IMG/VR virus record: IMGVR_UViG_3300049988_000286
Location: 32,001-96,000 of that record
Reading direction: 5' to 3' (one strand)
Source: a virus
Lineage: Duplodnaviria; Caudoviricetes
Length of the DNA: 64,000 bases
The translations under genes were made by a program, and so were the position numbers. Below, one piece after another: positions 13,734 through 30,240 of this stretch; positions within the stretch are counted from its first letter, which is position 1; the number at the start of each line of letters is the position of its first letter. The notes beneath the pieces were generated by a model. That model made no database searches, was not told the DNA's origin, and saw nothing but the letters and a program-made list of their open reading frames with translations.

Positions 13734-14335
13734 CCGACATCGCTGAACGCCTCGCCGCTGATCTCCTCAAGAACCTCTCCAAGGATGACTTGCTCACCGA
13801 GTTGAACAAACGTGGTGAGGTAGTCGAGGTGGCTACTGGAGGCCCATCGAGTTGGGACTTCGCCGGAAGCGCGGCGATAGGCAGGTGCCTGTCGTGTCGC
13901 TTCTTCACGATGCGGGACTCGTACAAGTCGGGGTCGGGCAATTGCCAAATCAGAGCACCGGGGGCTACCGGCTTCCCGGCGGTGCGCGCTGGCGCTTGGT
14001 GCGGCGAATGGCAGGAGCGTCTCGCCACCCAACCCCGCTACCACGAACCTCCGATCGAGACCGTGGCGAACCATACTGTTGTGCCGTTCATCCTCGCCGC
14101 GTTCGACGGTATCGAGAAGCTGGCTAAACATCGCCTGTCACAATCCACCAATCGCCATGGTGGTGCGCGAGACACCTTGCGCGAAGACGCGGAGCGGATC
14201 ACCTCTCTGTGCAAGGCGGCGCGCCGCTGTGGCCTCTACCCGCACGCATTGGAGGAATTCACTGCCGCGCTGGACGAGCCGATGCCCTTCGAGGTAGCAG
14301 CGACGATGAAGAAGCTGGGAGCGCGTGATGAGTAA
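13730..14335 (+). CDS. hypothetical protein with Cys cluster
   Basis: CLSC...C...WCGEW; coupled. Confidence 0.7.
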   Translation: MTDIAERLAADLLKNLSKDDLLTELNKRGEVVEVATGGPSSWDFAGSAAIGRCLSCRFFTMRDSYKSGSGNCQIRAPGATGFPAVRAGAWCGEWQERLATQPRYHEPPIETVANHTVVPFILAAFDGIEKLAKHRLSQSTNRHGGARDTLREDAERITSLCKAARRCGLYPHALEEFTAALDEPMPFEVAATMKKLGARDE

Positions 14336-14648
14336 GCAGTTGGAGCCACATTTCGTCAAGCTTCGTGTCGGCGACCGGTTCGTCCCCTACGCGACCTCGC
14401 GTATCGGCGACGAGTTCATCCCGGTCAAGTTCGAGCATTGGCACGCAGCTAACGATTTCGCGAACAGTCCTGATATCGTCGGCAACTATCTGGTGGAAAT
14501 CCACCCCTTCTACCCCGAATACGCTGATCTCGAACGTCGATCTCTCGACCGAGACATCGAAGCCTTGCGCGAGGATTTGCGCAAGATCGCGGAGAAGGTC
14601 GAAGAAGAGATCACCGCGCTCAACGCCAAGCGAGACCTCATCCCATGA
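14325..14648 (+). CDS. hypothetical coiled-coil protein
   Basis: coupled ORF. Confidence 0.65.
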   Translation: MMSKQLEPHFVKLRVGDRFVPYATSRIGDEFIPVKFEHWHAANDFANSPDIVGNYLVEIHPFYPEYADLERRSLDRDIEALREDLRKIAEKVEEEITALNAKRDLIP

Positions 14649-14804
14649 TCCGCATCACTGTCTTCATCGCGCTCCTGACAGCGCCGGGTCAACCTGCTAC
14701 TCGGGTGGAGAACCTGCCTCGCGTCCAAGATTGCATCACGGTGGTGCAAGCATGGAAGGCCCAACAGGCGGGGAACAACGGCTCTTGCGCGAAGGTGGAA
14801 CAAT

Positions 14805-15026
14805 ATGTCCGACGCTGATACTCAAGCCCGTGAGATGATCCGCGATGCCGAGCGTTACCGGGCATTGCGGCAGATGATCATCTCGATCAACAAGGTGCCG
14901 AAGAGCGAAACTCCCCTGTATGAGTTTGCGGTCTCTGACACCATCTATCCCCCGGCACAGGACTTTCTGCGCGCCGACGACATGGCGCAACTCGATGAGA
15001 TCGTGGACGCCGCGCTGGCGCGATGA
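14805..15026 (+). CDS. hypothetical protein
   Basis: coupled ORF. Confidence 0.6.
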   Translation: MSDADTQAREMIRDAERYRALRQMIISINKVPKSETPLYEFAVSDTIYPPAQDFLRADDMAQLDEIVDAALAR

Positions 15027-15298
15027 CACCGTATCCCGACCATGACTTCAACGAGCGTGAACGCTGGGAGGAAGGGGAGGCCGAGTTCTGTGACCGGATG
15101 GTAGAGTTGTGCCTCAAAACGGTCACGGAACAGAGCGAGCGATTATCGAAGGAGGCGAGTCGCGGCGGTCCCGGAGCCCTCTACCTGTCCACGATCGCGG
15201 AGCCGGTGCTCCATGCCACGATCCGGGCTCAAGTCTGGGGACAGATGGCGGACCATCTTCGCCGCTCCCGTATCGCAAGGATTGAGAACCCGCGTTGA
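15023..15298 (+). CDS. hypothetical protein
   Basis: coupled ORF. Confidence 0.6.
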   Translation: MTPYPDHDFNERERWEEGEAEFCDRMVELCLKTVTEQSERLSKEASRGGPGALYLSTIAEPVLHATIRAQVWGQMADHLRRSRIARIENPR

Positions 15299-15531
15299 TG
15301 TTGTTGCTCGCCCGCGTGAAGAAGCGACGCACGGTAGCCGCACAGCGGTGGCGCGATGCCGTGGCGCTTTCTCGCGCAGGGGTGAGTCGTAGCGAGGCGG
15401 CAGCGAGGCTCGGGATGACCGATGATGGTCTGAAATCATTACTTCATCGCCAAACCAAATCTTCAAAGTGGCCGATCAAAAACGATTGACCGAACTCTCC
15501 TCGTCAGTTATGCCGATGTTGGAGAAACGAT

Positions 15532-16344
15532 ATGAGCAAGATGTTCCCAACCGCGAGCGAGCGGACGACTCGTCGGGCTGCCCTGTATAAGCGCCTCGAC
15601 GCCTTTCTGGATAATCATGTCCCCAGCGATGGCGGCTACGCGCCCGCGACAGATGAGGATGTTCAGTTCATGCAAGGCGTCTTCGAGGAGATCGCCGATT
15701 TGAAGTTCGGCCGCGATCCGGATGGTGATCAGGTGCTCGGCACCGTGGCGTGGAATCGGCGACGCGGACGGATGGAAACCTTCTTCTTCCCGCACGATCC
15801 CAGCGAGCGAACGCTCGGTCGCGAGCCCACGCCGCTCGATCAGATCACGCACGAGAACCAGATGGCGCGCGCCACTGGGTTCATGGCATCGGTTCTCCAT
15901 CGTCATCTCGACCGGATCAGCATGGAGAGTGATATGCGCCGTGATGCTGCCATGAAGGTGGTCGATGGTGAAACCTTTGTGGAGGCATATCGCGTAACGC
16001 TCGCCCGTGATCCCATCGCTGCCGAGAAGATGCTCGATGACGAGATGGCGAAGCGCACTCCCCTGTTCGACAAACGCGGACCCATCCACAACATGATGCG
16101 CGAGGAATTTGGCGCGGTCATGGTCGAAGAGACTCGCGTCGCCGGGATGGCGATCGATCACGTCCTGTCAATGCTCGCCACGGCTCACGTCACGGATCGC
16201 CAGATCGAGAAGGAGGTAGCAGATACCATCATGCCCGCCTTGGCGCGCTTCGGAAAAGCAACCTTCAAGGATCAGGTAGAGCGCTGGAACTCCCTCTACA
16301 ACGAACGGCGACGCGCCCGGATGCTATTGACTACCGCGTCGTAA
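15532..16344 (+). CDS. hypothetical protein
   Basis: GGAG SD, TTGACC upstream. Confidence 0.75.
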   Translation: MSKMFPTASERTTRRAALYKRLDAFLDNHVPSDGGYAPATDEDVQFMQGVFEEIADLKFGRDPDGDQVLGTVAWNRRRGRMETFFFPHDPSERTLGREPTPLDQITHENQMARATGFMASVLHRHLDRISMESDMRRDAAMKVVDGETFVEAYRVTLARDPIAAEKMLDDEMAKRTPLFDKRGPIHNMMREEFGAVMVEETRVAGMAIDHVLSMLATAHVTDRQIEKEVADTIMPALARFGKATFKDQVERWNSLYNERRRARMLLTTAS

Positions 16345-16380
16345 ACCATTATCGAACTCTGATTATCAAAGGAACACTGT

Positions 16381-16686
16381 ATGGCGACTGCACTCAAGGC
16401 TGTGAAACCAACCGCTATCGCGTCGGCGATCCAGACCATCACCTCGATGCGTGACACGATCGCGGAGGCGCTTCCCAACGCCGAAGTGACTGCCAGCTTG
16501 AACGAGCGCGGCAACTTCACCGTGACGCTGCGCTTCGTGCTCGTCGAGGATCGGGAACTCGCCATGATGAAGATGACCCACGGCCTCGTCGGCGATCTCT
16601 CCTTCGCCGATATCTCGGCTGTTGCTGATCAGAAGAACGCACCCGGCAAGGGGCGGCTGCTCGTCAACGCTTCGGTGCTCGGGTGA
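16381..16686 (+). CDS. hypothetical protein
   Basis: AAGGA SD. Confidence 0.7.
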   Translation: MATALKAVKPTAIASAIQTITSMRDTIAEALPNAEVTASLNERGNFTVTLRFVLVEDRELAMMKMTHGLVGDLSFADISAVADQKNAPGKGRLLVNASVLG

Positions 16687-17102
16687 GCGAACCGTTCGAG
16701 ATCATCAACGAAACCGCCTCCATGATGGAAGGTCTCCGGAACGGAGAACCGATCACCAAGGAGGCGGCAGGGGTGTTGCTGGACAAAATCGCGACGCTTC
16801 GCAGCTACACCTTCAAGGCTGTCCGTATGGACTTCTACAACGAACTCCGTGATGCCGCCGACGTGGGCTTCGTCAAGCTAGTCGAAGTCCGCGATGGCCT
16901 CAATCAACTCCATGCCGACCTCCAGCAATACCCGGAGCGGGATAGTCGCAAGATCGAGAAAGCCAGTTTCGCGGCGGTACTCGGTGACGACATTGAGTTG
17001 TCGCGTGACGACATCGCGATGCTCAAGCGGCGGTATGACGATCGTATCGAGCGTCTGGCACTCGCTCTCAATGAGGGGCTGCATAAACCGCGTTACTCCT
17101 GA
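16683..17102 (+). CDS. hypothetical protein
   Basis: coupled ORF. Confidence 0.7.
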   Translation: MSEPFEIINETASMMEGLRNGEPITKEAAGVLLDKIATLRSYTFKAVRMDFYNELRDAADVGFVKLVEVRDGLNQLHADLQQYPERDSRKIEKASFAAVLGDDIELSRDDIAMLKRRYDDRIERLALALNEGLHKPRYS

Positions 17103-18130
17103 ACCGGCCGGAAGGCATTGTCGTGGAGGTTGGCGAACCGTTCCGGTCCGAGGGCAGCCTTAGTGGCCGTGAGTGTGTCGGGATGCATCCAGTCCCGTGA
17201 CGCCACAGCGATCTTGAGCGCGCAATCGTCGGTGGTCCATAGGCGATGGAACAACCCCTGTTCGGTGGCGGGGGTGCTGCCGACGATCAGATAAGGCGGT
17301 GTGATCATGATGCTGCTACCGGCATGGTAATGGCTTGATCGACCAGCGCTGCGTTCGATCATGTCATCGTGATCAAATGGCGCGATGACTTCCTTGCGCG
17401 TCACCGCATGGATGTAAGCCAATAGTCGGCTCTCAATCGAGAACGGGATGTGGGCGGCATTGTCGATCAGGATGTAGTCGTAATACTCGCCCACGAAGGC
17501 GGCATTGGACAACGCCTCGAAGGTCATGACCTTCACCGACGCATCGTCAATCTCCTTGGCGAGGTGAGTGACGAGGCGGTAATTGCTCGTCACCAGCAAG
17601 ACGTGTTTGCCCTGTGCGGCACGCTCGCGCGCGAACGCTATCATGAATGTCGTGAGACCAGCGCCGCGCGACGAATTGATCACCACATCGTTGCTACGCG
17701 CCGCCTCGGCGATCTTGATCCACAGCGGGCGCAGATGATCGTCTTCGGTCAGGCGGGGGCCGGTGATGCGGTAGCGCTCAACGAGGAAGTCTGACGGGTT
17801 GAAGCCATCAGAGAAAACCGGTGTCACTGCGCCTTCGAGCGCCTCTGGGACGATCGCTGCCGCCATATCGCGAAGCTGCTCCTCAAGGTGCACATGAACG
17901 CTCTCATCGGGGACGATGCCCGCAAGATTGGCGATCTCCTCCACCTCTTCGGAATGCTCTGGCAATTCAATGTCGCTGACCGGCGTGAGGGCAGTGGTGG
18001 TATTGGCGCGCGTTGCGACAGAATCACCGAGGAGGTAAGCCTCGACGATCGCGGCCTTGGCCATCATATCTTCGAAATTATAGGCAAAACCGCGCGCAGC
18101 CTCGATGGCTTGTAGGCGTGTATCAATCAT
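17093..18130 (-). CDS. degenerate terminase large-subunit ATPase-like protein
   Basis: SRGAGLTT (Walker A-like, no Lys), YILIDNAAHI (Walker B-like), GSTP...FHRLW, LGPERF. Confidence 0.5.
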   Translation of the reverse strand: MIDTRLQAIEAARGFAYNFEDMMAKAAIVEAYLLGDSVATRANTTTALTPVSDIELPEHSEEVEEIANLAGIVPDESVHVHLEEQLRDMAAAIVPEALEGAVTPVFSDGFNPSDFLVERYRITGPRLTEDDHLRPLWIKIAEAARSNDVVINSSRGAGLTTFMIAFARERAAQGKHVLLVTSNYRLVTHLAKEIDDASVKVMTFEALSNAAFVGEYYDYILIDNAAHIPFSIESRLLAYIHAVTRKEVIAPFDHDDMIERSAGRSSHYHAGSSIMITPPYLIVGSTPATEQGLFHRLWTTDDCALKIAVASRDWMHPDTLTATKAALGPERFANLHDNAFRPVQE

Positions 18131-18203
18131 GTTATTCTCCAATTCATTTCTGTATGGTAGTGAGATCGTTTCCGTCTCCCTTTATTTAGTTAAGTGAGCA
18201 TTT

Positions 18204-18794
18204 ATGTTGAATTTAGAGCACATGATGGAGCGATATGGAATAAAACTATTGGTGCTCTATCGTCGTTGCCATAATGGATATAATCGTGACCAGAACAGAA
18301 TAGCGATCTTCGAGTTTAGCGACTGGCGAGACATAGAGCGGCTCATCATGTGCGCCGACTACCCCTTCAAGCGGGGAGGGACTATCCTGAAGAGGATGAT
18401 TGGTGACGTTGATCGTGTCGGTCTCTTCCATACCAGCACGATTGATTACCTTTATGAGCGCTCGGCAAGTGTTGCCCCCGTCGAGTTCACGGTGTCATAT
18501 ACCTTGGTCAACCGCAGCTATATCGCGCGTGAGTATGACAACGTGATGATGTTGTTGGAGGGAGCATCGAAGGGTCAACAGAGCGGACGGCTCGCGCTGA
18601 TCACCAATAAGGATATGGCTGATGAACTCGATTGGCTCGGCGATTGGACTATCTGGATAAGCCCATCCTTCACCGCTGTAATCAAACTTTGGCCCTATCG
18701 TCGCATCGACGATCACGAACTCACGCTCTTTCGACTGCGCTGGGGACATTTGCTCCTTGCCCCGATGGAGAGTTCGAGTTACGCTGCGGTATGA
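18204..18794 (+). CDS. hypothetical protein ending in paralog-family motif
   Basis: DDHELTLFRLRWG. Confidence 0.65.
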   Translation: MLNLEHMMERYGIKLLVLYRRCHNGYNRDQNRIAIFEFSDWRDIERLIMCADYPFKRGGTILKRMIGDVDRVGLFHTSTIDYLYERSASVAPVEFTVSYTLVNRSYIAREYDNVMMLLEGASKGQQSGRLALITNKDMADELDWLGDWTIWISPSFTAVIKLWPYRRIDDHELTLFRLRWGHLLLAPMESSSYAAV

Positions 18795-19420
18795 ACCAAT
18801 TTCAAAAGCGCAAAGTCATCCTCCAGACTCTCCTTCAAGGGGAGGGCTACTATGATGCCTTGGCGGTGATGCACTACTGTGAACCTCACCACGCGGGAAC
18901 GCGCAAAGACGGGTTCACGCCCGAGTACTCCCACCAGATCAACATCGCGACCTTCGCCCTCGATCTTCCCGATCTCATGTATCGGCAGGACGTGATCGCA
19001 ACGATCTTCGGCCACGACACCAGCGAGGATGCTGGCCGGAAGTGGACGAAGATCGCCCGGCGGGTTCGTCGCTCCAAGAAGGCGCGCAAGCGTGTCGCTC
19101 GGGCGATCAAGAACATGACCAAGGAGTGGAAGGGTCAGCGCATCCCAGACGCTGATCTCTTCGCCAAGATGGCCCGCGATCCCGTCGCGTCGATCGCCAA
19201 GGGCTGCGACCGCATCCATAACCTGTCTTCGATGGTTGGTGTGTTCACGCCCGCGAAGCAGCGCGAATACATCCGGGAAGTCAGGGAGTTGTTCCTGCCG
19301 ATGCTCAAGCTGGCGCGGCGGCGCTTCCCCCATCAGGCGCGCGCCTACGAGATGATCAAGTTCGTCCTCATCTCGCAGATCACCCTGATCGAATCCGCCC
19401 TCAATGGAGCAGAGGCATGA
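18791..19420 (+). CDS. HD-domain hydrolase, RelA/SpoT (p)ppGpp-hydrolase-like
   Basis: H..TRKDG..PEYSH...GHDTSED...K.CDRIHN. Confidence 0.8.
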   Translation: MNQFQKRKVILQTLLQGEGYYDALAVMHYCEPHHAGTRKDGFTPEYSHQINIATFALDLPDLMYRQDVIATIFGHDTSEDAGRKWTKIARRVRRSKKARKRVARAIKNMTKEWKGQRIPDADLFAKMARDPVASIAKGCDRIHNLSSMVGVFTPAKQREYIREVRELFLPMLKLARRRFPHQARAYEMIKFVLISQITLIESALNGAEA

Positions 19421-19623
19421 ACGACCTTTTGGACAACAAAGAGCCCACGGTGTCGGCTCACGATCTCGCGCGCGAGCATACGCGGCGATGGCGCGACGCT
19501 GGGGAGATGATCGCCGCCGTGGCCTTCTCCGCTATGGCGCTGGGCGGTCTTCATTATCATGTCGAGTATGCGGGATGGCTGATCTTCTTGTCGGTCATCA
19601 TCGTGTGGCGACGAGTCGCATGA
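19417..19623 (+). CDS. small membrane protein
   Basis: two hydrophobic segments. Confidence 0.6.
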   Translation: MNDLLDNKEPTVSAHDLAREHTRRWRDAGEMIAAVAFSAMALGGLHYHVEYAGWLIFLSVIIVWRRVA

Positions 19624-20087
19624 AGGCGCTCCTGACCGAAATCATCTGGTTCGAAGGCCCCGCCCTGATCGCGTGCGATCATCGCTGCGACAAGGCGTGG
19701 GGGATGAATGGTCGCCTCGCGACAATCGGTAGCTATGCTCCTGCACAGATTCAGCTATCCGACGATGATGACGACCACGTTAACCTTGCCGATGCGGAGG
19801 TGGGCATAGCCCCGGAGGACACAGGCTGGTCCGAAGGACCGGACGGCAAGCCGTGGTTCCCGGAACGACACAATCGCTGGTGTGCCCGAGAGTGCGAACG
19901 CTCCTCGATCATCGATCCCGGTGATGCAGTGAAGATAACCGATTATCGGCAGAGGGTGTTCAACATACCGCATCTCCACGATGCCGAGAATGCCGTGATC
20001 GATTTCGGGTTCTCATTCCAGCCGAGCGGTCAAAAACACGCATCATTCATCGAGATAGATGTTGACACCTCGGAGACCATCAAGTAA
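19620..20087 (+). CDS. hypothetical protein
   Basis: coupled; ACDHRCDKAWG, WCARECER. Confidence 0.7.
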   Translation: MKALLTEIIWFEGPALIACDHRCDKAWGMNGRLATIGSYAPAQIQLSDDDDDHVNLADAEVGIAPEDTGWSEGPDGKPWFPERHNRWCARECERSSIIDPGDAVKITDYRQRVFNIPHLHDAENAVIDFGFSFQPSGQKHASFIEIDVDTSETIK

Positions 20088-20103
20088 ACCGATGATGTCT
20101 TGA

Positions 20104-20177
20104 CGCGAGGTGGTGAGATTAGTCCGTCCGGTTGCAAGCCGGGAGTAAGCTGGTGAAAGCCCCGGCCCCCGCGACCA
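20104..20177 (+). tRNA. degenerate tRNA-like gene, GCA anticodon
   Basis: CGCGAGG/CCCCGCG-A-CCA, TCCGG-TTGCAAG-CCGGG, T-loop TGAAAGCC, weak D-arm. Confidence 0.5.
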
Positions 20178-20185
20178 AGACATGT

Positions 20186-20262
20186 AGCGCTGTGTCCAGA
20201 GTGGTTATGGACTCTCCCCGCAAGGGAGAGATACGTGGGTTCGATTCCTCCCAGCGCTGCCA
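20186..20262 (+). tRNA. tRNA, GCA anticodon (Cys), atypical C33 and G73
   Basis: AGCGCTG/CAGCGCT-G-CCA; TCTCC-CCGCAAG-GGAGA. Confidence 0.7.
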
Positions 20263-20273
20263 ATCTATTTTGA

Positions 20274-20364
20274 GTGTCGGTGGCGGAGTCCGGCCGAACG
20301 CACAAGACTGCAAATCTTGCGAGGGCTTCCCTCCACGCCGGTTCAAATCCGGCCCGATGCTCCA
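20274..20364 (+). tRNA. tRNA-Cys(GCA) with long variable arm
   Basis: CAAGA-CTGCAAA-TCTTG, GAGGG-CTT-CCCTC V-arm, U73, CCA. Confidence 0.85.
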
Positions 20365-20374
20365 TAAATAGAAG

Positions 20375-20926
20375 ATGCGAGACATCATCGCGCTGATCGA
20401 AAGCGCTACCCTTCCGTTCAATCTCAACGACCAATTTGTGGCCAAAGTGCAAGCATACTTGCACGAGCATCTCGGTGATTGGGCCGATGATTTCCCTGAT
20501 CTCAAGCTGGCGATTATGCAAGCGTGGCAGTTGATCCACGATGAAGGCGTGCCAGACAATGGTGTGATCGAGGTTTATCGCGAGGAACTTCGTCCAAGTG
20601 AGCAGATCGCCAACCACAACTACGGCACCCTCGGTGCTTGCTGGTCGTGGGATGCCAATGGGGCGGGAACATGCCACCATGAAAACGCATATGACGAGCA
20701 CGGCCGGGAAAATGTCGAGGCCATTGTGTTCATCGGCGAGGTCTCGCTCTCCGATGTCGAATGGGTTCAGACCATCGCGAAGAATCTCGTGCTCAAGAAC
20801 GAGCGCGAGATCAACATCCGGGACGGCGCACGGGTGAGGCTTGAGGGTCAGTATAAGGCTGGCGCTCGGGGCTACGAACCGCTAGCCGATCAGGTATATC
20901 AAATCAGCAATATCAACGACTTCTAA
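20375..20926 (+). CDS. ADP-ribosyltransferase-like late protein
   Basis: MRDIIALIES; VYR...LGACWSW...NERE; 4 nt after TAAATA. Confidence 0.45.
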   Translation: MRDIIALIESATLPFNLNDQFVAKVQAYLHEHLGDWADDFPDLKLAIMQAWQLIHDEGVPDNGVIEVYREELRPSEQIANHNYGTLGACWSWDANGAGTCHHENAYDEHGRENVEAIVFIGEVSLSDVEWVQTIAKNLVLKNEREINIRDGARVRLEGQYKAGARGYEPLADQVYQISNINDF

Positions 20927-20927
20927 C

Positions 20928-20953
20928 GGAACGAACTCTCCTTGCCGTAAGTT
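20928..20953 (+). promoter_or_regulatory. possible EcfG/SigT (general stress) promoter
   Basis: GGAAC-N17-AGTT directly upstream of the LOV kinase. Confidence 0.35.
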
Positions 20954-20980
20954 AGATGGTCTGCTACCGGGGTAGAAATT

Positions 20981-22570
20981 TTGCGGGATTCGCGAGTGCC
21001 TGATAATCGGAACATCGACAGCCGTGGTAACTTGGATCACACGGAAGCGCAAGGCTTCGATAGCGATCACAGCGACATCTTCTATGCGGCAATCCAGCGT
21101 TCGCGGATGCCGATGATCCTCACCGATCCTAATCGTCCAGACAACCCGATCGTGTTTTTCAACACGGCCTTCTCGACGCTCACTGGATACCCCCCGGAGG
21201 AAATCCTAAATCGCAACTGTCGCTTCCTGCAAGGGGAGGAGACGGATCGCGATAAGGTCGCCTATGTGGGTCAACAGATTCTCGCGGAGAAGGACTGCTC
21301 GGTAGAGTTGCTCAACTACCGCAAGGACGGCACCTCGTTCTGGAACGCGCTCTTCATCTCGCCCGTCTATGACAATGACGGTAAGCTCGCGTATTACTTC
21401 GCATCCCAGCTTGACGTTACCCGGCGGGTGAAGAGCGAGGAGTTGCTTCGCCAGACCCAGAAGATCGAGACGCTGGGACAACTCACCGGCGGCATCGCGC
21501 ACGACTTCAACAACATGTTGACCGTGGTGATGGGCAACCTCAACATGGCGCAGAACGCCATGGAGGTGAAGCAACCCGATCGCGTATCAGTTTACCTCGA
21601 TCGCGCCATGGCGGCAGCAAAGTCGAGCGATCGTCTCACCCAGCAGCTTCTCTCCTTCGCGCGCAAGCAGCGGATGACGACGGAGCGTCTCGATCTCAAC
21701 GAGGTGGTGCGTCAGGTGCAGACGATGTTCGAGCGCGTGCTCACCACGGGCATCTACGTCTCCGCCGAACTCACCAGTGATCCGTGGATGGTTTCCCTCG
21801 ATCCCAGCCACGCACAGAGCGCTTTCCTCAACGTGCTCCTCAACGCTCGCGATGCCATCCCGGCGACCGGGGGCTCGATCAAGCTACGGACGCGTAATCG
21901 CATCGTCGATGCCGAAAATCCCTTCTACGACCTCGCAGAGGGTGCGTATGTGGAACTCTCGATCGAGGATACCGGGTCGGGCATGTCGGAGGAAACGAAG
22001 ATGCGCGTCTTCGAACCTTTCTTCACCACCAAGGGTGTGGGTAAGGGCACCGGCATGGGGCTCGCCATGGTGCATGGCTTTGCCGACCAGTCCAACGCCA
22101 CCATCATCATCGAGAGCACCGAGGGCGTGGGGACAACGATCTCCTTCATCTTCCCCACCGATGACGCTCACGCCGTAGAGAGGGACCGCCACAGCGGATC
22201 ACGCATCCTTGTCGTGGAGGACAACCAGATGCTCCGCGAGACGACGGTGGATTTCCTGCGGATGCACGGATTCACAGTGCGGGATGTCGATAGCGCCGAC
22301 AGCGCGATCAAGGCACTCGACGGCGGATACGTCCCCGACATCCTGTTCAGCGATGTCGTCATGCCGGGGACGATGGACGGCTTCGGTCTCGGCCGCGTTG
22401 TCCGTGACCGCTTCCCCAGCGTTCACGTGCTGCTCAACAGCGGGTGGACAGATGGTCGCGAGAACAACGACGAGTTCGAGGTGATGAGCAAGCCGTACGA
22501 TCTCACCAAGCTGGCAAGCGTGTTGACGCGCATGAGCGATCTCGATCGCGACAAAGCGCACGAGGGCTAG
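20981..22570 (+). CDS. LOV-domain hybrid histidine kinase (LOV-HisKA-HATPase-REC)
   Basis: NRNCRFLQG LOV motif; GGIAHDFNN H-box; NARDA, DTGSGM, FFTTK, GTGMGL; LFSDVVMPG and KPY receiver. Confidence 0.92.
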   Translation: MRDSRVPDNRNIDSRGNLDHTEAQGFDSDHSDIFYAAIQRSRMPMILTDPNRPDNPIVFFNTAFSTLTGYPPEEILNRNCRFLQGEETDRDKVAYVGQQILAEKDCSVELLNYRKDGTSFWNALFISPVYDNDGKLAYYFASQLDVTRRVKSEELLRQTQKIETLGQLTGGIAHDFNNMLTVVMGNLNMAQNAMEVKQPDRVSVYLDRAMAAAKSSDRLTQQLLSFARKQRMTTERLDLNEVVRQVQTMFERVLTTGIYVSAELTSDPWMVSLDPSHAQSAFLNVLLNARDAIPATGGSIKLRTRNRIVDAENPFYDLAEGAYVELSIEDTGSGMSEETKMRVFEPFFTTKGVGKGTGMGLAMVHGFADQSNATIIIESTEGVGTTISFIFPTDDAHAVERDRHSGSRILVVEDNQMLRETTVDFLRMHGFTVRDVDSADSAIKALDGGYVPDILFSDVVMPGTMDGFGLGRVVRDRFPSVHVLLNSGWTDGRENNDEFEVMSKPYDLTKLASVLTRMSDLDRDKAHEG

Positions 22571-22573
22571 GCG

Positions 22574-22936
22574 TTACCCGAACTTGGCGGAAAGGCGCTC
22601 GAAATCTGCGCGTTCCCGTTGTTCGCGCAGAGCGTCACGCTCCGCCTTCGCGCACGCGCGCGCGATCATCTCATCGTCGGTTTCCTCGCGGACGCCATAG
22701 ACGTAGATGTATTGTTCATCCCCGTAACCGTCACCGTGTTTGCGAAACTCGAAGGACTTATACTCGGGATAGTCTTCCTCGATGCGCGCCATATTGTCGC
22801 GGACCGAATCGAAAGAGTTCTCGACGTCGAACGACATTAGCTTGATGCTCACGACGCCGCGCGTCTCTGCGAGTTCGACGATCCTCGCCACGACTGCGCC
22901 GCGAATGTCGGCGATCTGCTGTTCGGTCAGGGGCAT
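22574..22936 (-). CDS. hypothetical protein
   Basis: GAGGAG SD; TTGACA-N16-TATCAG upstream (22955-22982). Confidence 0.75.
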   Translation of the reverse strand: MPLTEQQIADIRGAVVARIVELAETRGVVSIKLMSFDVENSFDSVRDNMARIEEDYPEYKSFEFRKHGDGYGDEQYIYVYGVREETDDEMIARACAKAERDALREQRERADFERLSAKFG

Positions 22937-22992
22937 GATGTTCTCCTCACGGCCCTGATAAACAATTACGACGAACTGTCAAGCTGGAACTA

Positions 22993-23026
22993 TTATGGCC
23001 CCTCATGTTGCCATGAGGGGCCATAA
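22993..23026 (-). terminator. 15-bp perfect hairpin closing the long non-coding region
   Basis: TTATGGCCCCTCATG-GCAA-CATGAGGGGCCATAA on the minus strand. Confidence 0.6.
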
Positions 23027-25067
23027 ATCCAGTAGCGTGAGACTATCACCACTGGTGCTTGATCGCACAGTCATTATCCCGTTGCCGAAGCGCGGGGTTC
23101 TACTGCTTGTCCTCGACCGAAGTCGCCACCAAGCGTCACCACACCAATCGTTACCCACTGGTGCCGTGGGGCATCCACAAACGATATCGGCAATCTTACG
23201 ACTACCGAACACCAGACCATGTGCTGATCTCGTGCTCCTCATTCTCCAAAGAGTGAGGAATTAGGTGACTCCCGTTCGTGGAGAACGGCTACTTCTGCAT
23301 TGCTCGCCCGCCGGTCCTATTTCGTCACCCGGAGGCGACATTCCTATAACCGTCGTGCGCGTCATCGGACGCTGCCTCTATCTCGGCTCCGACTTGCGTC
23401 GGAATACCTTCTCGCCCTCTATCAGCGGTTGCTCGCTGATCAATCCTTCGGACGACGTGGCTCCGTCACCCTCTGGACTGCCGATCCCACCCTTGTATGC
23501 CTACTCGGGCGCTTGGAGGAGCGCAGCGATGCTACACTCCGATCCGCGACTCGCGTCGCTGATTGACCGACTACTGGTTGACCGACTTGTGGGCGTATAA
23601 AGCGACAAGGAGCGGATGCTTATCCCCGACTTCCACTGACCTGTTTCTCCCGCGAGCGGGCATCGAGCCAGTGATTACTTCCCTTGTATCTACGCCGTCG
23701 AGGTCTGTTCCCCCTGACTTGCGTCAACAGAAACTCCCTCACGGGTGGTCCCAGCTTGCATAGATGAACCCCTGTGGCGTGACCCACACAGGCCCAAGGC
23801 TATGACCCCTGCCTTGGCTTACCAGCGGTTACCCGCTCGTTGCTCATTAGACTGCGCTACACCGCAGTATCGCGATCAAGCATCACCTGATCTCCACCCA
23901 ACACTTGCCGGGCTTCACAGACCTTGCGAGAGGCTGATTGCGGATTTTCCAGAGATACCGGCGAGATGGACACGATCCTAGAACCGCATCAGACAATTCG
24001 CCGGTATCCCTGCGGAACCGACTTTCATCGATCCCGATCTTTCAAGCACGGTTTGAGCGCTCCCGCGAAGGCGCGTTCGGACTTCCTCAACCGCGAGGTA
24101 TTGGAAGGCTTGGCAGTTTTCACCGCCGTTCACCGTGCTTGTGGTATCCGAGTAAACCCGGAGACCAAATTTCCGGAGAGGATTTTGCTACCGCAGCCCC
24201 GCAAAGGATTACAGCAGAATCGGCCTCTCCGTGGACCGGACCGAAGTCCTGCCCAAGATTTCAGGAGTTCTCATCTCAACTTCGGCGATGAAGGCATGGT
24301 GACCCGGCCATCGTCCTCGGTAGTAAGTCACTCCTGCGGTCCCGACCGAAGTCTGAACCGATTTTCCAAGGAGCCGCCTCGGTCATCCTGCGCTACATCG
24401 TATGACCGATATCCGCTCTGGCTGTCCTGCGCACTCCTTGTGGTAGATGTTCTCAACCTAAGTCTCGATCACCACCAATCTCGTGAGCGTTTGTTCCGCT
24501 CTGGAACCCTGATACTCAAACCCGAGGGTGAGCGTCAAGAAGTTTTTTCGAAGGGGATGACCAACCGAAGTTGATCATCCCGCTTCTGGATCAAGGCCTA
24601 GACCTCAACCCGTCTTTCGAGGTTGGTTTAGCGACACCGCCGTTTTCACGGCTGTGATCCAACCTCGCGGCGACAAGGGGTGAACCCAACGAACCACCCT
24701 TGCAACCGAACTTCCGGAGGGGACGGGGAGGTGAGCGTGCTTTTCAGCATATTCTCCGCCTTCCGGGCGAGGGTCGGCGGACCCCTCCGTGGCGCGACGC
24801 CGAAGCATCGTTGCCGTTTTCCGAGGATGACCAGCATGATACCGAAGTATCTTACCCGCCATCCTCGCGGTCAGGGATTTTCGACTCTGCTCGAAAGCAT
24901 CATCTACGGTCCCTTGACCGATCTCGTAAACTGATTGCCCCGAAGGGCTGTCAAAGAGCAGTATCGACCGAGGCCTATACTTCGGAAGCATCTCGGTAGT
25001 GAGTCATTCAACTCTCTACTTCAATCTAGGTTCCGCCGTTTGTCTTCGGCAGCGCCTCGTTTCCGTT
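22993..25067 (-). ncRNA. candidate giant structured non-coding RNA (or RNA cluster), ~2.1 kb
   Basis: no credible CDS; at least 8 C(UUCG)G and several GNRA hairpins on the minus strand; bounded by promoter and terminal hairpin. Confidence 0.7.
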
Positions 25068-25073
25068 GATCCG

Positions 25074-25103
25074 TCTATAGGGGTGAGGCTTTCGACCTGT
25101 CCA
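25074..25103 (-). promoter_or_regulatory. sigma70-like promoter facing the non-coding region
   Basis: A-rich upstream, TGGACA-N18-TATAGA on the minus strand. Confidence 0.5.
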
Positions 25104-25228
25104 GCACTTTTTTCACAGCCGTGCATTTTTTTCGTCATCACCCTATCGCGCAATCGAACTTCGGTGTTGCGATCCAGACGTGTAATTGATACCCTCGGGG
25201 TTGAAATCTTTTGGAGAACCAAACTCAA

Positions 25229-25696
25229 ATGAAGAAACATCTGTTCGGCGCGGTGCTGGCAAGTATCGCGCTCGTTCTTCCCGCCACGGCGCAGCCTTTG
25301 ACTCGCGAGCAACTCGGCTACCGCGTCGGCGTCACCCAAGTCGTCGATGGCGATACCCTGACCCTCGATGCACGATCGTGGTCCCCCTTCCCCAACCTCT
25401 CGTGGAAGGTACGCGTGCGCGGGATCGACACGCCGGAGAAGCGCAGCCAGTGCGTGGCGGAGCGTGAGGCAGCGGTTCGGGCAACCCGATACACCAAGAC
25501 CTTGATCGAGCGTGCGGGCAATCAGGTTTACATTCAGGAACCTCGTCATGACAAATATGGCGGACGTTTCCTCGGCGTGATCATTCTCCCCAATGGGGTC
25601 TCGCTCGCCGACACATTGATTCGCAGCGGTTACGCCCGCCCCTATAACGGCGGACAGCGCCGTCCGTGGTGCGTGTTCGGTCAGTATCGTCCATAA
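25229..25696 (+). CDS. thermonuclease (SNase) family protein with signal peptide
   Basis: VVDGDT, RVRGIDTPE, DKYGGRFLG, GYARPY. Confidence 0.9.
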   Translation: MKKHLFGAVLASIALVLPATAQPLTREQLGYRVGVTQVVDGDTLTLDARSWSPFPNLSWKVRVRGIDTPEKRSQCVAEREAAVRATRYTKTLIERAGNQVYIQEPRHDKYGGRFLGVIILPNGVSLADTLIRSGYARPYNGGQRRPWCVFGQYRP

Positions 25697-25708
25697 AAGG
25701 ATTGCGTC

Positions 25709-26272
25709 GTGGTGGTGACAAGTACGAGCACGTGGTCGGTGGTGATGCACAACACCAGTAAGGTGGCTCCGCCGCCATACGTCCACACGGTCGAGCGTGA
25801 TGGTCTGCGCGCCATGCGGCTCACTTGGTGGCGCATTAGAGGCTACAAGAACGACATCAACCCCGGTGTTGATGCCCGATATGAGCGTCGGGGATGGCTT
25901 GGTCTCACCGCCACGAACATGAGCGACCACGAATTCCGCGAGATCAGAAAGTGGTTCCGCGAGCGCGAGGGCGCGTGGGTATCGAAGAGGATCGGGGATT
26001 GTGACGAACCCCATATCCGCGAGATGATCGGCGAGTATGAGGATCACTGCGTGACGATGTGGTTCGCAACCGAGGCTCTCCTTGATGCCTTTGTCGAGTT
26101 CCTCAAGGCGTTTCCCGTCCGCGACACCGCCCTCCTGATCTCGCGCTCGGCTGACGTGCGCCACCTCATTACCGGAACCAATTTCCGGATCATCCGAGGC
26201 CGGGATCACGCGCTGCTCGCCATCACCGATGAAGTCGATGATACCTCTCGTATGCTGTTGCGCCTGATCTAG
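25709..26272 (+). CDS. hypothetical protein with paralog-family-like motifs
   Basis: KWFREREG; DDTSRMLLRLI. Confidence 0.6.
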   Translation: MVVTSTSTWSVVMHNTSKVAPPPYVHTVERDGLRAMRLTWWRIRGYKNDINPGVDARYERRGWLGLTATNMSDHEFREIRKWFREREGAWVSKRIGDCDEPHIREMIGEYEDHCVTMWFATEALLDAFVEFLKAFPVRDTALLISRSADVRHLITGTNFRIIRGRDHALLAITDEVDDTSRMLLRLI

Positions 26273-26487
26273 TCCCAGAGATCAGCGAGGGCATTCACTG
26301 CCTCCATGACAACCGCGAAAGCGAGCCCGGCGACTACTGCACCGATGACAGTCACGATCACGCCGATCCAGAACAGGATAAGGAGCGGGATCGTGATTGG
26401 TGACAAACAGAGAAAGAAGCGGCGAAGCCAGCGCGGCCAAGTCGCCGGTGAGGCGATGTCGAAGATTTGGTTGAGGAAGTCGATCAT
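26269..26487 (-). CDS. small membrane protein
   Basis: long hydrophobic segment. Confidence 0.6.
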   Translation of the reverse strand: MIDFLNQIFDIASPATWPRWLRRFFLCLSPITIPLLILFWIGVIVTVIGAVVAGLAFAVVMEAVNALADLWD

Positions 26488-26511
26488 CGCTCCTCATACC
26501 ATGACGAGCGC

Positions 26512-26937
26512 CTAGCCGGTATATTCCCGACAACGCATCCGGATCATCGCCATGTCTTCGGCATCGGGCGTGGTGATATAGAGCGAGTAAGGTGACCTGA
26601 TCGCAGTCATTGGTGTGAGCAACGACTCATCCAACCAGCGCTTCAAATGGGGTTCTGCCGAGACGATTATTTCATGACCGAGATGCCAACGAGGGTTGCG
26701 GATGAGGGGGAAGATGGTGCGCAGCGTGCTGACCGCCAAACGGAAACCGTTCTCATCGTCGGAATGTCCAATCGGTTCATCGAACTCATAGAAGATCATC
26801 GACTTGTCGGGAACGCCCATATCGAGGCGTCCGATTGCATGACCACCGACTGGTGCTGGTTGGCTCTCGAAGGTGAAACGAATATAACCGTCGAGGAAGA
26901 TTTCACCCGGCCACCAGCGATGTTTTACTTGACCCAT
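26512..26937 (-). CDS. hypothetical protein ending in paralog-family motif
   Basis: RWLDES...DAEDMAMIRMR. Confidence 0.6.
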   Translation of the reverse strand: MGQVKHRWWPGEIFLDGYIRFTFESQPAPVGGHAIGRLDMGVPDKSMIFYEFDEPIGHSDDENGFRLAVSTLRTIFPLIRNPRWHLGHEIIVSAEPHLKRWLDESLLTPMTAIRSPYSLYITTPDAEDMAMIRMRCREYTG

Positions 26938-26971
26938 AGCACCTAATCGTTTAGTCAATGGCTTGGAGATC

Positions 26972-27514
26972 ATGATGTCATATTCGGGCTGGAAAATCAA
27001 CGAGCAGGATCGCGCCGCCCTGCTGGCCGCGTTTCCGCCCCGGTACCCCGATGTTATGGCGCATCACGTCACCCTGCGTCGTGGCGACAAATCGGTTCCT
27101 GATTTCGCGCGCTTCGCCGTTGTGGGTCATGTCGATGATGGTCTGGGTTGCGAGGCGCTGATCGTTGCCCGCGACGGCATGACCGAGAACGGATCGCGGA
27201 CCTTCCACGTCACTTGGTCGATCGATCGCGAGGCGGGACGCAAGCCCGTGCACAGCAACGATGTGATCGCCGGGGGGTGGGAAGCCGTTGAGGCTCGGTC
27301 GTTCGAAGCTACGCCGTTCCGAGTGGATCACGATCGCGTCGAGCATTTTCACACCGATGAATCGGCTGCGAGATCGCGCTGCCGCGCCGAAGGCATGGAC
27401 CCCGATTTCGTTGGTGAGAAGGGATATGAGAACTGGCGCATGTTCACCGATGCGGCGCGAGCACAAACGCGGGCGTTCCTGCGCGCCACCGAAGAAATGA
27501 TTCGTGACCGATAG
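26972..27514 (+). CDS. 2H phosphoesterase-like protein
   Basis: AHHVTL and FHVTW HxT motifs. Confidence 0.6.
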   Translation: MMSYSGWKINEQDRAALLAAFPPRYPDVMAHHVTLRRGDKSVPDFARFAVVGHVDDGLGCEALIVARDGMTENGSRTFHVTWSIDREAGRKPVHSNDVIAGGWEAVEARSFEATPFRVDHDRVEHFHTDESAARSRCRAEGMDPDFVGEKGYENWRMFTDAARAQTRAFLRATEEMIRDR

Positions 27515-27794
27515 GCGTCTGCGCCGCAACGATGTCGTGATCGAGCGGGAGAACTCATGGCTCTACGGACGAGTCGTGAGGTGCATCGACAGTGAGACGG
27601 TCGTGGTCATCGATTGCGGTAAACACCACAGAATATTCCTCATGGAAGACCTCAAGCTCACCGATTACCGGGGCTACCATAGAAGGGACAGATTCGTCGC
27701 CATGCCATCGCTGCGTCGGCTCAAACAAAACGCAGCGGGTTACCATCCCGAAGTATGGCGTCACTATCGTCGGAGGCACGGCCTTGAAGAATAG
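27504..27794 (+). CDS. hypothetical protein
   Basis: coupled ORF. Confidence 0.55.
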   Translation: MTDRRLRRNDVVIERENSWLYGRVVRCIDSETVVVIDCGKHHRIFLMEDLKLTDYRGYHRRDRFVAMPSLRRLKQNAAGYHPEVWRHYRRRHGLEE

Positions 27795-28458
27795 TCCCAA
27801 CACCGTCGCGCTGACGCCAACTCATTATTTCCGCGACCACACCGATTGCCGCAAGCGCAATCGAAGTGGGGATCGCACGCAGGGTGATTGGCTCCGCCCT
27901 ACCGAGAGCAAAATCCTACATCCGGAAGTCTTTCGGTGGCTGCGTGAGAACGTCGGCCTTGAATTGAACGAGGTCTGGGACGTGGACCGCTACTACTATC
28001 CCGGTGAAGACCTACCCGTGCTGCCCCGAGGTGCGCGGGGCGAGTGGCTCGCGGCTGGGCGGGTGTGTCTCGCCGACCACGTAAGCGGAGAATACAGCCA
28101 CAACCGAAGCCAAGACAGTATCTACTTTCCCGAAGTCAAGCACGCGAAGGCGTTCCGCGAAAGGTTCGGCTTGTGGGAAGAAAATTGGGCGCTGCTCAAT
28201 CACGCGATGGATCGTCGGTACGCCGTCATGGACTTCTTCCTCGGCGATATGGCACGCCGCCCGATATACGCCGTCGCGACCGCAACGAGGATACTGGCCC
28301 GTGACGATCGTTATGAGAGCGCCACGTTCCGCCACCATGTGGACTATTACAAGACGATCGTCGCGCTACGCGATGAAGCGGAGGAGGTGCTCTTTCGCAT
28401 CGAGCACCCCGACTTCGTTATCGTGACCGCTCGTGAAGTCCAAGCAGCATCCGCCTGA
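27784..28458 (+). CDS. hypothetical protein with paralog-family motifs
   Basis: RWLRENVG...YFPEVKHAKAF; DEAEEVLFRIEHP. Confidence 0.65.
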   Translation: MKNSPNTVALTPTHYFRDHTDCRKRNRSGDRTQGDWLRPTESKILHPEVFRWLRENVGLELNEVWDVDRYYYPGEDLPVLPRGARGEWLAAGRVCLADHVSGEYSHNRSQDSIYFPEVKHAKAFRERFGLWEENWALLNHAMDRRYAVMDFFLGDMARRPIYAVATATRILARDDRYESATFRHHVDYYKTIVALRDEAEEVLFRIEHPDFVIVTAREVQAASA

Positions 28459-28732
28459 CATAATCGGATAGATCGGCGGGCGTGATAGGAATGGACTCAT
28501 CCCGCCAGTCGAATTGCAGAGCATCGTATTCGGCTTGGGTCACGTTGAGCACGGCGGCGATCGGCGCTTCGATCCGCTTGTCATCGGGATCGTAGAAGAT
28601 GATCTTGTCAGTGGCGTACTTCCACTGCCACAGGCCCTGTTTGTTGAGATCAAGCACACGGCAGTCGCCGCGCATCTTGCGTTCGTGGAGGAGCGGATCG
28701 TTGCCGCGCACTTTTAGCTTTTGGTCTGGCAT
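28418..28732 (-). CDS. hypothetical protein
   Basis: ORF. Confidence 0.55.
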   Translation of the reverse strand: MPDQKLKVRGNDPLLHERKMRGDCRVLDLNKQGLWQWKYATDKIIFYDPDDKRIEAPIAAVLNVTQAEYDALQFDWRDESIPITPADLSDYVRRMLLGLHERSR

Positions 28733-28826
28733 GGCGGCGGATTAGGCAGGTGGGTCATGACCGTCAAGTAGATTTGGGGTTGCATAGTTCGTTCGATCTG
28801 ATAAACGACTTGGCGAGGAGAACAAC

Positions 28827-29177
28827 ATGCGACAGAAGCTGCTCACCAAGGCAAACATCGACCGACTCATGCGCAACGGCGCGGAACAGGCCAGAGGCGT
28901 TGATCGTGACCGCAAGCCGGTGGTGAAGCTCTTCAACCCGATGGGAGCGCAGACATGGCTCATTACCGAGATCGACCCCAATGATCTCGACACGATGTTC
29001 GGCCTGTGCGATCTTGGTCTCGGTGAGGCGGAACTCGGCTCGGTGTCGTTGAACGAACTTGCGACACTGCGGCTGCCGCTCGGACTCAAGATCGAACGCG
29101 ACCAGCATTTCACCCCTGATCGGACGATCGGGCAATACGCGGAGGCGGCACGCGCCGCCGGGAGGATCGTGGCATGA
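28827..29177 (+). CDS. DUF2958-family protein
   Basis: VVKLFNPMGAQTWLITE...FGLCDLGLGEAELGSVSLNEL. Confidence 0.85.
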   Translation: MRQKLLTKANIDRLMRNGAEQARGVDRDRKPVVKLFNPMGAQTWLITEIDPNDLDTMFGLCDLGLGEAELGSVSLNELATLRLPLGLKIERDQHFTPDRTIGQYAEAARAAGRIVA

Positions 29178-29707
29178 AGTTCGTCAAGCTTGGCACCAAG
29201 CATCAGGTGCTACCCAGTAATGATGAGCAGCGCAGCAATCTGCTGAAACTCGCCCACCATCTCGCCGCCTTGGAGAACACTTACTCGCACTTTCACATGG
29301 GATTCTACTTCCTCGCGCAAGCCGATGACACTGTTGCCGATTGGCGTCTCCGCGAGGGCATCGACGAGGACGGTCTCGACAACATGTTCGAGGTGAAGGT
29401 GCAGGAGAACTCGTTCGAGGCTCGCATCGGTCAGTGCGGAGCGGTCGCGTGCGCGATCGGGCACGGCCCCCTCGCAGGAATTCCCGAGTCCAGCGACGAT
29501 TGCGATTGGGACGACTACGCCGTTCGGGTATTCGGCGTCGATGCTTCTCGGTCGGGGTCGTTTCTTTTCGGCTGCGAATGGACACAGACGGCCAACACTG
29601 CTCATGAGGCTGCGGAGCGCATCTTCTACGCACTCGAACACGGAGTCCCCTGTGAGGGGGACTATTTCCACTTGGACTACTTCCACGAAGAAGTTGTCCG
29701 CGTTTAG
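29174..29707 (+). CDS. hypothetical protein
   Basis: coupled; VACAIGHGP. Confidence 0.7.
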   Translation: MKFVKLGTKHQVLPSNDEQRSNLLKLAHHLAALENTYSHFHMGFYFLAQADDTVADWRLREGIDEDGLDNMFEVKVQENSFEARIGQCGAVACAIGHGPLAGIPESSDDCDWDDYAVRVFGVDASRSGSFLFGCEWTQTANTAHEAAERIFYALEHGVPCEGDYFHLDYFHEEVVRV

Positions 29708-30240
29708 TCGTCGTCCATCTGCTTCGCTTGGGCGTCTGCGAATAGCTGGTGAAGAAATGGGTCGTCTTTATGTTTGATGACCCAATGCTGGAAGAGGCCG
29801 CGCGCAGAATTACAGCGATGACATGACGGGACTAAATTGGCTAATTCGTTATTCAATTTGTCACCGTCGAGGTGATCAACGTGTATTCCCGAACGTCCTG
29901 ACCATTCGAGCGATTTACCACACCAACGACAACTATGCGACCCTTCGCCAATCGCATCGTACAATACACGTCGATGCTTGTAAACGAAACCGCTCGTAGT
30001 TGCTAGCGGATGATCCGGTCGTGATTGCCATACATATCCATGGCTACTGACACGTTCGGACTCTCCTCTCACGTGAAGCGTGAGCAGTGGATCGCCATGG
30101 CGCTTGAAGCGCGAATAATGTTTATGGCAAAAACCTTTGCCGATGCGATTACTTTCACATCCCTCTACCGAACAGAGGGCCGGTGTCTTCAATGGGGCTC
30201 TGCGTATTCTCTTACCTGATTTTGGAATTCCCTCGGGCAT
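29704..30240 (-). CDS. HNH endonuclease (homing-type)
   Basis: CSVEGC, CRWC, HVDHLDGDKLNN...CHRCN. Confidence 0.85.
   Translation of the reverse strand: MPEGIPKSGKRIRRAPLKTPALCSVEGCESNRIGKGFCHKHYSRFKRHGDPLLTLHVRGESERVSSHGYVWQSRPDHPLATTSGFVYKHRRVLYDAIGEGSHSCRWCGKSLEWSGRSGIHVDHLDGDKLNNELANLVPSCHRCNSARGLFQHWVIKHKDDPFLHQLFADAQAKQMDDD

Follow-up and report, generated by a model that had tools for sequence, protein, structure and literature searches.

Hybrid histidine kinases that join a flavin-binding LOV domain to HisKA, HATPase and receiver domains (LOV-HK-RR; HK, histidine kinase; RR, response regulator) are found in plant-associated bacteria as proteins of about 530-540 aa. The Pseudomonas syringae protein binds flavin mononucleotide (FMN), and blue light stimulates its autophosphorylation, after which the phosphate passes to its own RR domain (PMC3684834). 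Its counterpart in Xanthomonas citri, Xac-LOV (LOV 39-142, HK 167-396, RR 417-533), shows canonical LOV photochemistry and influences motility, exopolysaccharide and adhesion; deletion of lov alters swarming and flagellin content equally in light and dark (PMC3366940). Here we describe a gene, at positions 20981-22570 (+) of a 64,000-nucleotide stretch of viral DNA (henceforth the window), which is predicted to encode a LOV-HisKA-HATPase-receiver hybrid kinase of this kind. The window corresponds to bases 32001-96000 of a 499,572-bp IMG/VR virus record (IMGVR_UViG_3300049988_000286, henceforth G000) with a CheckV completeness of 100. Viral genes with light-dependent functions have been described before, namely psbA and other photosynthesis and bilin-synthesis genes of cyanophages, and the rhodopsins of giant eukaryotic viruses. 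However, these encode photosynthesis or pigment enzymes or ion-transporting rhodopsins and not sensory kinases, and to our knowledge none of the known light-related viral genes is a two-component sensory photoreceptor kinase in a bacteriophage.

Analysis of the predicted 529-aa protein with Pfam recovered four domains: PAS_9 (residues 48-147, E 7.7e-20), HisKA (165-230, E 3.5e-08), HATPase_c (274-393, E 1.1e-17) and Response_reg (409-491, E 1.7e-11). The LOV sensor, i.e. the flavin-binding PAS domain, spans residues ~32-147 (21074-21421, +) as delimited by the PAS_9 match, its alignment to the LOV domains of YF1 and YtvA, the residue comparison and a model confidence (pLDDT) of ~80-89. It contains the putative adduct-forming Cys80 (21218-21220) in the motif NRNCRFLQG, which aligns with C62 of YtvA in the YF1 alignment and is invariant in 10/10 phage proteins and 111/111 cellular homologues. 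Likewise, R81, Q84, N112, N122 and Q143, the equivalents of R63, Q66, N94, N104 and Q123 of YtvA in the alignment to the PDB sequence, are invariant in all ten phage proteins. The J-alpha linker and the DHp (HisKA) helices follow at residues 148-230 (21422-21670, +), as supported by the HisKA match, a continuous helix over residues 147-195 in the structural model and the predicted phospho-accepting His174 (AHDFNN; 21500-21502) within the H box GGIAHDFNNMLT; this histidine is unchanged across the 10 phage and 111 cellular proteins. The HATPase_c catalytic ATP-binding (CA) domain (residues 274-393; 21800-22159, +) is delimited by the Pfam match and the PDB alignment, and displays all the expected boxes: N (NVLLNARDA, with N288), G1 (EDTGSGM, with D330, G332 and G334), F (FEPFFTTK) and G2 (GKGTGMGLAMV, with G356, G358 and G360). 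Finally, the fused receiver (REC; residues ~409-520; 22205-22540, +), defined by the Response_reg match and its residues, contains the acidic pocket E413/D414, the predicted phosphoacceptor Asp458 (FSDVVMPG; 22352-22354), Ser487 and Lys504. N288, the G1 and G2 boxes, D414, D458 and K504 are likewise invariant in the ten phage proteins. The original prediction, made from the letters of the DNA alone, of an intact LOV domain with its photoactive cysteine, a complete HisKA/HATPase module and a receiver with its aspartate is thus borne out on each count.

Searches against solved structures recovered as the best match YF1, a fusion of the YtvA LOV domain with the FixL kinase (4GCZ; E 3.8e-40, residues 32-401), followed by the kinase core of CckA (5IDJ; E 5.8e-38) and Brucella LOV-HK (6PH4; E 3.3e-36, residues 30-164), all with scores that chance could not produce. 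The phage kinase aligns with YF1 over the LOV domain, linker, DHp and CA, whereas YF1 is an engineered protein without a receiver; the match to CckA, a cell-cycle protein with different sensor domains, covers DHp and CA. In a monomer model built with AlphaFold2 (mean pLDDT 73.6, pTM 0.40) the order is LOV, long helix, DHp, CA and receiver, the first four as in YF1. We take this model as support only, as the comparison with solved structures had settled the matter at the sequence level.

The gene forms one open frame on the plus strand from a TTG at 20981 to a TAG stop at 22568-22570, as supported by the open reading frame (ORF) list, the Pfam and NCBIfam matches, the N-terminal alignment with phage homologues and a codon check. 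An alternative GTG at 20996, which would yield a protein of 524 aa, is the start called in a near-identical contig from an unrelated assembly (L010; NCBI GCA_004144765.1, 1,322 bp). A weak G-rich stretch lies 7-8 nt 5' of both candidates, and the true start is likely to be one of these two. The position first proposed, 20928, has to be abandoned: it is merely the base following the stop of the upstream ORF (20375-20926). A scan for sigma-70 promoters and intrinsic terminators around the gene recovered none above shuffled background, a result that carries no information for a T4-like phage. Amber recoding, which could be raised by the TAG stop and two tRNA(CUA) genes in the genome, was rejected in favor of the standard code, because homologues share the HEG end point whether their stop is TAA, TGA or TAG, because TAG terminates 200 of the 862 long ORFs, and because treating TAG as a sense codon opens up frames no further than the same treatment of TAA does. 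The two tRNA genes with the amber-reading CUA anticodon lie outside the window (G000 102238-102314, +; 106351-106425, -).

At the family level, the protein matches the full-length LOV-kinase-receiver model PRK13557 of NCBIfam over model positions 9-527 of 540 with 575.2 bits (E 1.1e-172), a score below the curated cut-off of 631 bits. As the match is full-length yet under the cut-off, the kinase appears to represent a divergent, phage-only branch of the PRK13557 family rather than a curated member. By domain architecture and residues the protein type is that of the P. syringae and Xanthomonas LOV-HK-RR hybrids of the HisKA class. Its layout (LOV 48-147, HisKA and HATPase 165-393, REC from 409) matches Xac-LOV in domain order and lengths, and it shares with the cellular LOV-HK-RR proteins their overall size and the same photochemical and catalytic residues. 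The phage and cellular proteins align without a single indel over the whole stretch spanning LOV core and H box; hence, the signaling geometry should match that of the cellular homologues, and the light-ON polarity is probably the same as well. In contrast to the cellular proteins, the phage versions are at most 49% identical to them and lie on a long phage-only branch, and their carrier is a lytic-type huge phage, not a bacterial chromosome. They also differ in a conserved C-terminal H-x-G tail and, in clade A, in a Ser in place of Thr at the receiver switch position. The tail reads HEG in clade A, to which the window kinase belongs, and in clade B except for two loci with HQG and HMG, as seen in alignments A2 and A3 and in L040. 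The window kinase differs further in the Gly at position 97 discussed below.

A second group of blue-light-regulated two-component kinases with a homologous LOV sensor includes Caulobacter LovK, Brucella LOV-HK and Erythrobacter EL346 and EL368. These are HWE/HisKA_2 proteins without a fused receiver, unlike the phage protein, which is of the HisKA type with a receiver; in line with this, the NCBIfam model BluLightHisKinLov matches only its LOV part. The connection of LOV kinases with the alphaproteobacterial general stress response is a property of the HWE/HisKA_2 type. Accordingly, the stress-signaling link that the original prediction had invoked for Alphaproteobacteria applies to a different class from this PRK13557-type hybrid.

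Several lines of evidence place the gene in a phage genome. G000 encodes a gp23-type major capsid protein at 216-217 kb (Gp23, PF07068; 243 bits), which shares 66.5% identity with its counterpart in the 469-kb Sinorhizobium phage Phosso and ~62% with the capsid proteins of Rak2-like jumbo phages. The window itself codes for the medium (44315-45739, -; phrog_551, E 2.9e-108) and large (45696-47855, -; phrog_543, E 1.6e-167) subunits of a split T4-type topoisomerase II, whose ORFs overlap as listed, and for an HNH endonuclease, and has tRNA genes scattered through it, the genome as a whole having 41. On these predicted genes the carrier is a T4/Rak2-like huge (jumbo) phage, and the kinase indeed lies amid phage genes as first described. 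The phage also encodes a permuted transfer-messenger RNA (tmRNA) outside the window (G000 15534-15873, +; alpha_tmRNA RF01849, 69.7 bits), with a tag called by ARAGORN as VNDNDIRMAIAA. This tmRNA is of the alphaproteobacterial type and is therefore the best clue to the host, which is probably an alphaproteobacterium. The G+C content near the kinase gene (0.565-0.589) brackets that of the whole phage genome (0.572). L010 is 97.6% identical to the window over 20833-22240; as this independent contig crosses the junction with the upstream gene, an assembly chimera is unlikely. The shared coding part differs by 17 synonymous and 3 nonsynonymous codons.

Among 5.8 billion proteins, the top matches of the kinase are four proteins at 60-71% identity and P0003, the fragment encoded by L010, for which the search table gives 92% and alignment A2 gives 99%. 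The next tier, at no more than 49% identity, comprises proteins of Methylobacterium, Brevundimonas, Luteibacter, Variovorax, Xanthomonas and Pseudomonas. The contigs L001-L003, which encode close matches, show dense small ORFs lacking Pfam matches, several aminoacyl-tRNA synthetases, and Acb1-like, NADAR and Tpt1 genes, and they share many other genes with G000 at 40-83% amino acid identity in a differing order; by gene content they are phage-like contigs. A second set of kinases, clade B, with 46-48% identity to the window protein, is encoded in similar contexts on L009, L011/L012, L013 and L040, the last a 416,714-bp IMG/VR phage record (CheckV 90) with a capsid protein 67% identical to that of G000. 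In total, nine or more phage-like contigs besides G000, all from other samples, encode kinase homologues. Samples that carry the phage are IMG 3300044445, 3300055077 and 3300031088, SRR26324626, SRR32661276, SRR35974759, ERR15285265, SAMN35319304 and GCA_004144765.1; a literature search with the sample and run accessions gave nothing on their habitats.

A comparison with bacterial LOV kinases, proposed as a check with the original prediction, was carried out as an unrooted maximum-likelihood tree of 10 phage and 30 cellular proteins (LG+C20+F+G4). It separates all ten huge-phage proteins from the cellular homologues by a single branch with strong support (UFBoot 99, SH-aLRT 97), with a clade A stem of 1.16 substitutions per site. 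The phage branch joins close to the base of the cellular set, with Brevundimonas nearest by path length only; since the tree is unrooted the donor lineage cannot be named. Pairwise dN/dS (nonsynonymous to synonymous rate ratio) within clade A ranges from 0.12 to 0.24 with saturated dS, and the kinase gene evolves under purifying selection. On the simplest reading of these data, the gene would have been captured once, long ago, and then kept by purifying selection in a huge-phage lineage. Predicted viral regions of 8-58 kb in IMG/VR encode further full-length LOV kinases, which are of the cellular type and end in ...SPGGI. In the tree they cluster with Pseudomonas, and they have nothing more in common with G000; they were rejected as members of the lineage and are regarded as host genes or island cargo.

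Together, the left junction covered by L010 and the orthologues in related huge-phage contigs establish that the kinase is phage-borne and not a host chimera, and we are close to certain that it is a real, intact and conserved phage gene. It is also as atypical a phage cargo as first suspected: a tblastn search of 50,697 phage records with the kinase recovered no match covering at least 80% of it, the partial matches being mostly mislabelled bacterial contigs, and a megablast search of window positions 14000-30000 against the same records gave zero matches. Searches of the literature did not recover any description of a phage-encoded LOV protein or other sensory photoreceptor, and LOV is not mentioned in a survey of 224 jumbo-phage genomes. 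What is new is the carrier and not the photoreceptor architecture, which is known and here has its own long-lived viral lineage.

In light of the conserved residues and architecture, we consider it probable that the protein is a soluble blue-light photoreceptor of the LOV-HK-RR hybrid type. We propose, with a similar degree of confidence for the entire chain including light-regulated kinase function, that it serves as a blue-light-activated phosphorelay input on host signaling during infection. The idea raised with the original prediction, that the phage could tune infection or host signaling to light, gains plausibility from the conservation of the gene and the purifying selection on it. In the first step, the phage would make the kinase in the infected cell, probably an alphaproteobacterium, from a gene block of the host-takeover type. 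The LOV domain would then bind host FMN, and blue light would induce the Cys80-flavin adduct, as suggested by the conserved pocket. By homology, the signal would travel through the J-alpha/DHp coiled coil, which is equal in length to that of the cellular homologues, increase autophosphorylation of His174 and lead to phosphate transfer to Asp458. A search of the phage genome for an Hpt (histidine phosphotransfer) domain (PF01627) recovered none, and the genome encodes only one other receiver and no regulator combining a receiver with an output domain. The output must therefore run via host proteins or protein contacts: more speculatively, the phosphorylated receiver or the kinase might act on host partners or through protein-protein contact, coupling host signaling and perhaps the infection timetable to light. 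Going by the cellular homologues, the host programs within reach might be motility, envelope or stress functions.

Several observations weigh against this proposal. The position of R79 of YtvA, the second arginine contacting the FMN phosphate, is occupied by Gly97 (21269-21271); this site is Gly in 2, Lys in 1 and Arg in 7 (6 in a second tally) of the 10 phage proteins and Arg in 107/111 cellular homologues. Affinity for the cofactor could therefore be weakened, and Gly97 may accordingly reduce FMN binding. The phage genome lacks a detectable photolyase FAD domain (PF03441), no partner gene adjoins the kinase, and the kinase neighborhood differs between G000 and its closest relatives. To these may be added the PRK13557 score below the curated cut-off and the lack of a kinase match in Phosso, the nearest cultured relative, which marks the gene as accessory. 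Lastly, the L010 copy shows an in-frame deletion of 30 codons relative to window 22041-22117, flanked by two short GVG-coding repeats, in which the G2 box is lost; either the variant occurs in nature and is kinase-dead, or the two repeats were misassembled.

Of the alternatives that these points raise, the one that survives best, though we regard it as unlikely, is that the kinase is active but that light is not its natural cue, so that it would function as a flavin-dependent redox or oxygen sensor or as a near-constitutive kinase/phosphatase in hosts that live mostly in the dark, as in soil or sediment. The replacement of the FMN-phosphate arginine by Gly97 and a phage genome without photolyase or other light-related genes would fit such a role, as would the deletion phenotypes of Xac-LOV, which are alike in light and dark (PMC3366940). 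However, close members of the family display canonical photochemistry and blue-light-driven phosphorylation (PMC3684834, PMC3366940). Furthermore, the adduct cysteine and the flavin-pocket residues other than position 97 are invariant over two deep phage clades. LOV-like PAS domains that have lost the cysteine are common; hence, a non-photochemical use would not require its strict conservation.

A decoy or phosphate sink, which would heterodimerize or compete with a host LOV-HK-RR protein or its partners, or draw off phosphate via its receiver, and thereby silence a host light or stress pathway instead of sensing light for the phage, is a still more doubtful alternative. It would be compatible with the common occurrence of homologues of the same architecture in the likely host groups (Caulobacterales, Methylobacterium), with the lack of a phage-encoded downstream partner and with the one natural copy, that of L010, which may be without a G2 box. 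On the other hand, a pure decoy would not need the ATP-binding and phosphotransfer residues, all of which are invariant in the ten phage proteins, and the long stem branch and the limit of 49% identity to cellular proteins speak against a protein that imitates a specific host kinase.

We consider it very improbable that the gene is a recently captured and decaying passenger with no role in the phage. Its accessory nature, with Phosso lacking it, its differing position between G000 and its relatives, and the possible in-frame deletion in L010 would be expected of a passenger; however, it is kept in two phage clades whose LOV-HKs are only ~47% identical and is intact despite saturated synonymous sites, with dN/dS at or below 0.25. 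Contamination by host DNA or an assembly chimera, in which a bacterial LOV-HK gene is stitched into a phage contig, might be suspected from the overwhelmingly cellular membership of the gene family, but is effectively refuted by the same upstream junction at 97.6% identity in the independently assembled L010, the orthologues in at least nine other phage-like contigs (including the 416-kb phage with the 67%-identical capsid protein), the absence of any cellular protein above 49% identity among 5.8 billion and a local G+C that fits the genome. Both of these readings are contradicted by the conservation data.

Returning to the proposed photoreceptor kinase, a broader scenario can be put forward more tentatively: a lineage of 400-500 kb phages, probably of Alphaproteobacteria, could have had its own photoreceptor kinase since before the split of the two clades and could use it to gate infection or host behavior by daylight. 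If true, sensory photoreception encoded by a bacteriophage would be seen here for the first time. In the usual view, a phage learns about its surroundings only via its host or via a small number of systems that respond to small molecules (e.g. arbitrium and quorum-sensing receptors), and a lineage-wide photoreceptor kinase would add light to the cues sensed directly by bacterial viruses. What might be gated are the timing of replication or lysis, or the motility and stress state of the host; this raises the hypotheses of day/night control of infection and of the shielding of light-sensitive steps or released virions. As a compact, soluble and highly diverged LOV-HK-RR protein, it could also serve in work on signal transmission in hybrid kinases or as an optogenetic part.

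The kinase gene is set among tRNA genes, small ORFs of unknown function and, two genes upstream, a gene for an HD_4 protein with a RelA/SpoT-type HD domain (18632-19420, +), whose score of 27.9 bits lies just above the cut-off and which could possibly be an alarmone hydrolase. A gene for an Acb1-like protein, i.e. an anti-CBASS cyclic-nucleotide phosphodiesterase (4605-5144, +; PF23474, E 5.3e-08), lies 16 kb upstream of the kinase here and directly upstream of the LOV kinase in the clade-A contigs L001-L003. The ORF immediately upstream of the kinase in the window (20375-20926) was considered as the counterpart of the Acb1-like gene of those contigs and rejected, as it shows no Pfam match and only 18-25% identity. 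This setting of tRNAs, small ORFs, HD_4 and Acb1-like genes is more in keeping with a module for host takeover than with a structural module.

A second two-component system is encoded outside the window, adjoining the tmRNA gene. It consists of a GAF and HWE_HK histidine kinase of 398 aa (G000 ~16026-17222; L008 302-1498) and a single-domain receiver of 131 aa (G000 17174-17569; L008 1450-1845), which overlaps the 3' end of the kinase gene. This pair looks like the stress-type kinase-receiver pairs of Alphaproteobacteria. The closest relatives of the GAF-HWE kinase, a phage-only set of its own, are metagenome proteins of ~395 aa with 51-64% identity, followed by proteins of Caulobacter, Microvirga and others at no more than 46%, a drop in identity that follows the same pattern as that of the LOV kinase; one of these relatives shares a 339,978-bp contig with a clade-A LOV kinase (P0005). 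The LOV kinase and the GAF-HWE kinase/receiver pair show that two-component sensors are stable huge-phage cargo. If the proposed photoreceptor function holds, these phages might use the two together as a layer of two-component sensing of their own within the host cell. No PAS_9 domain other than that of the LOV kinase itself was recovered in the phage genome. The clade-B phage L040 encodes a second hybrid kinase of 709 aa with a PAS-HisKA-HATPase-REC architecture (9010-11139, +), which is without the LOV motif. In addition, many other IMG/VR contigs of 100-360 kb encode HisKA-HATPase-REC hybrids without a LOV domain; thus, hybrid kinases seem to be a recurrent cargo of huge phages.

The sole long ORF-free stretch near the kinase is a 2-kb region at 22937-25016, which is C-rich on the plus strand. 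Within it, the Rfam covariance model for GOLLD RNA (RF02032) gives a match over its full length at 23034-23420 (-), with 30.9 bits (E 4.5e-06) against a gathering threshold of 150 bits; the element is termed GOLLD-like only, because its score lies under that threshold. Directly 3' of the LOV kinase, three clade-B phages have a gap of 1.2-1.4 kb that is free of ORFs and conserved, with 70-75% nucleotide identity and no codon periodicity; it holds a strong GOLLD match, which in L009 reaches 144.8 bits (10208-10669, +; E 4.4e-40). In L040, it is just past this gap that the second hybrid kinase gene is found. Searches of the ORF-free stretch of the window against the clade-B gaps with blastn and nhmmer gave no match, and only the GOLLD covariance model connects them. 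Thus, a GOLLD-like RNA is linked with the LOV kinase in G000 and three clade-B loci, and not in L001-L003 or L013.

Closer to the 5' side of the gene, a pair of genes for tRNA-Cys(GCA) lies 600-800 nt upstream of the kinase (20186-20262 and 20274-20364, both +). The second member of this pair is 91 nt long and displays a long stem-loop variable arm resembling that of class-II tRNAs, which is unusual for tRNA-Cys. Other over-long tRNAs of 84-95 nt in this phage are those for Met, Arg-ACG, Asn, Gln-CUG, Ile-UAU and Glu, and they often occur alongside a normal-length copy.

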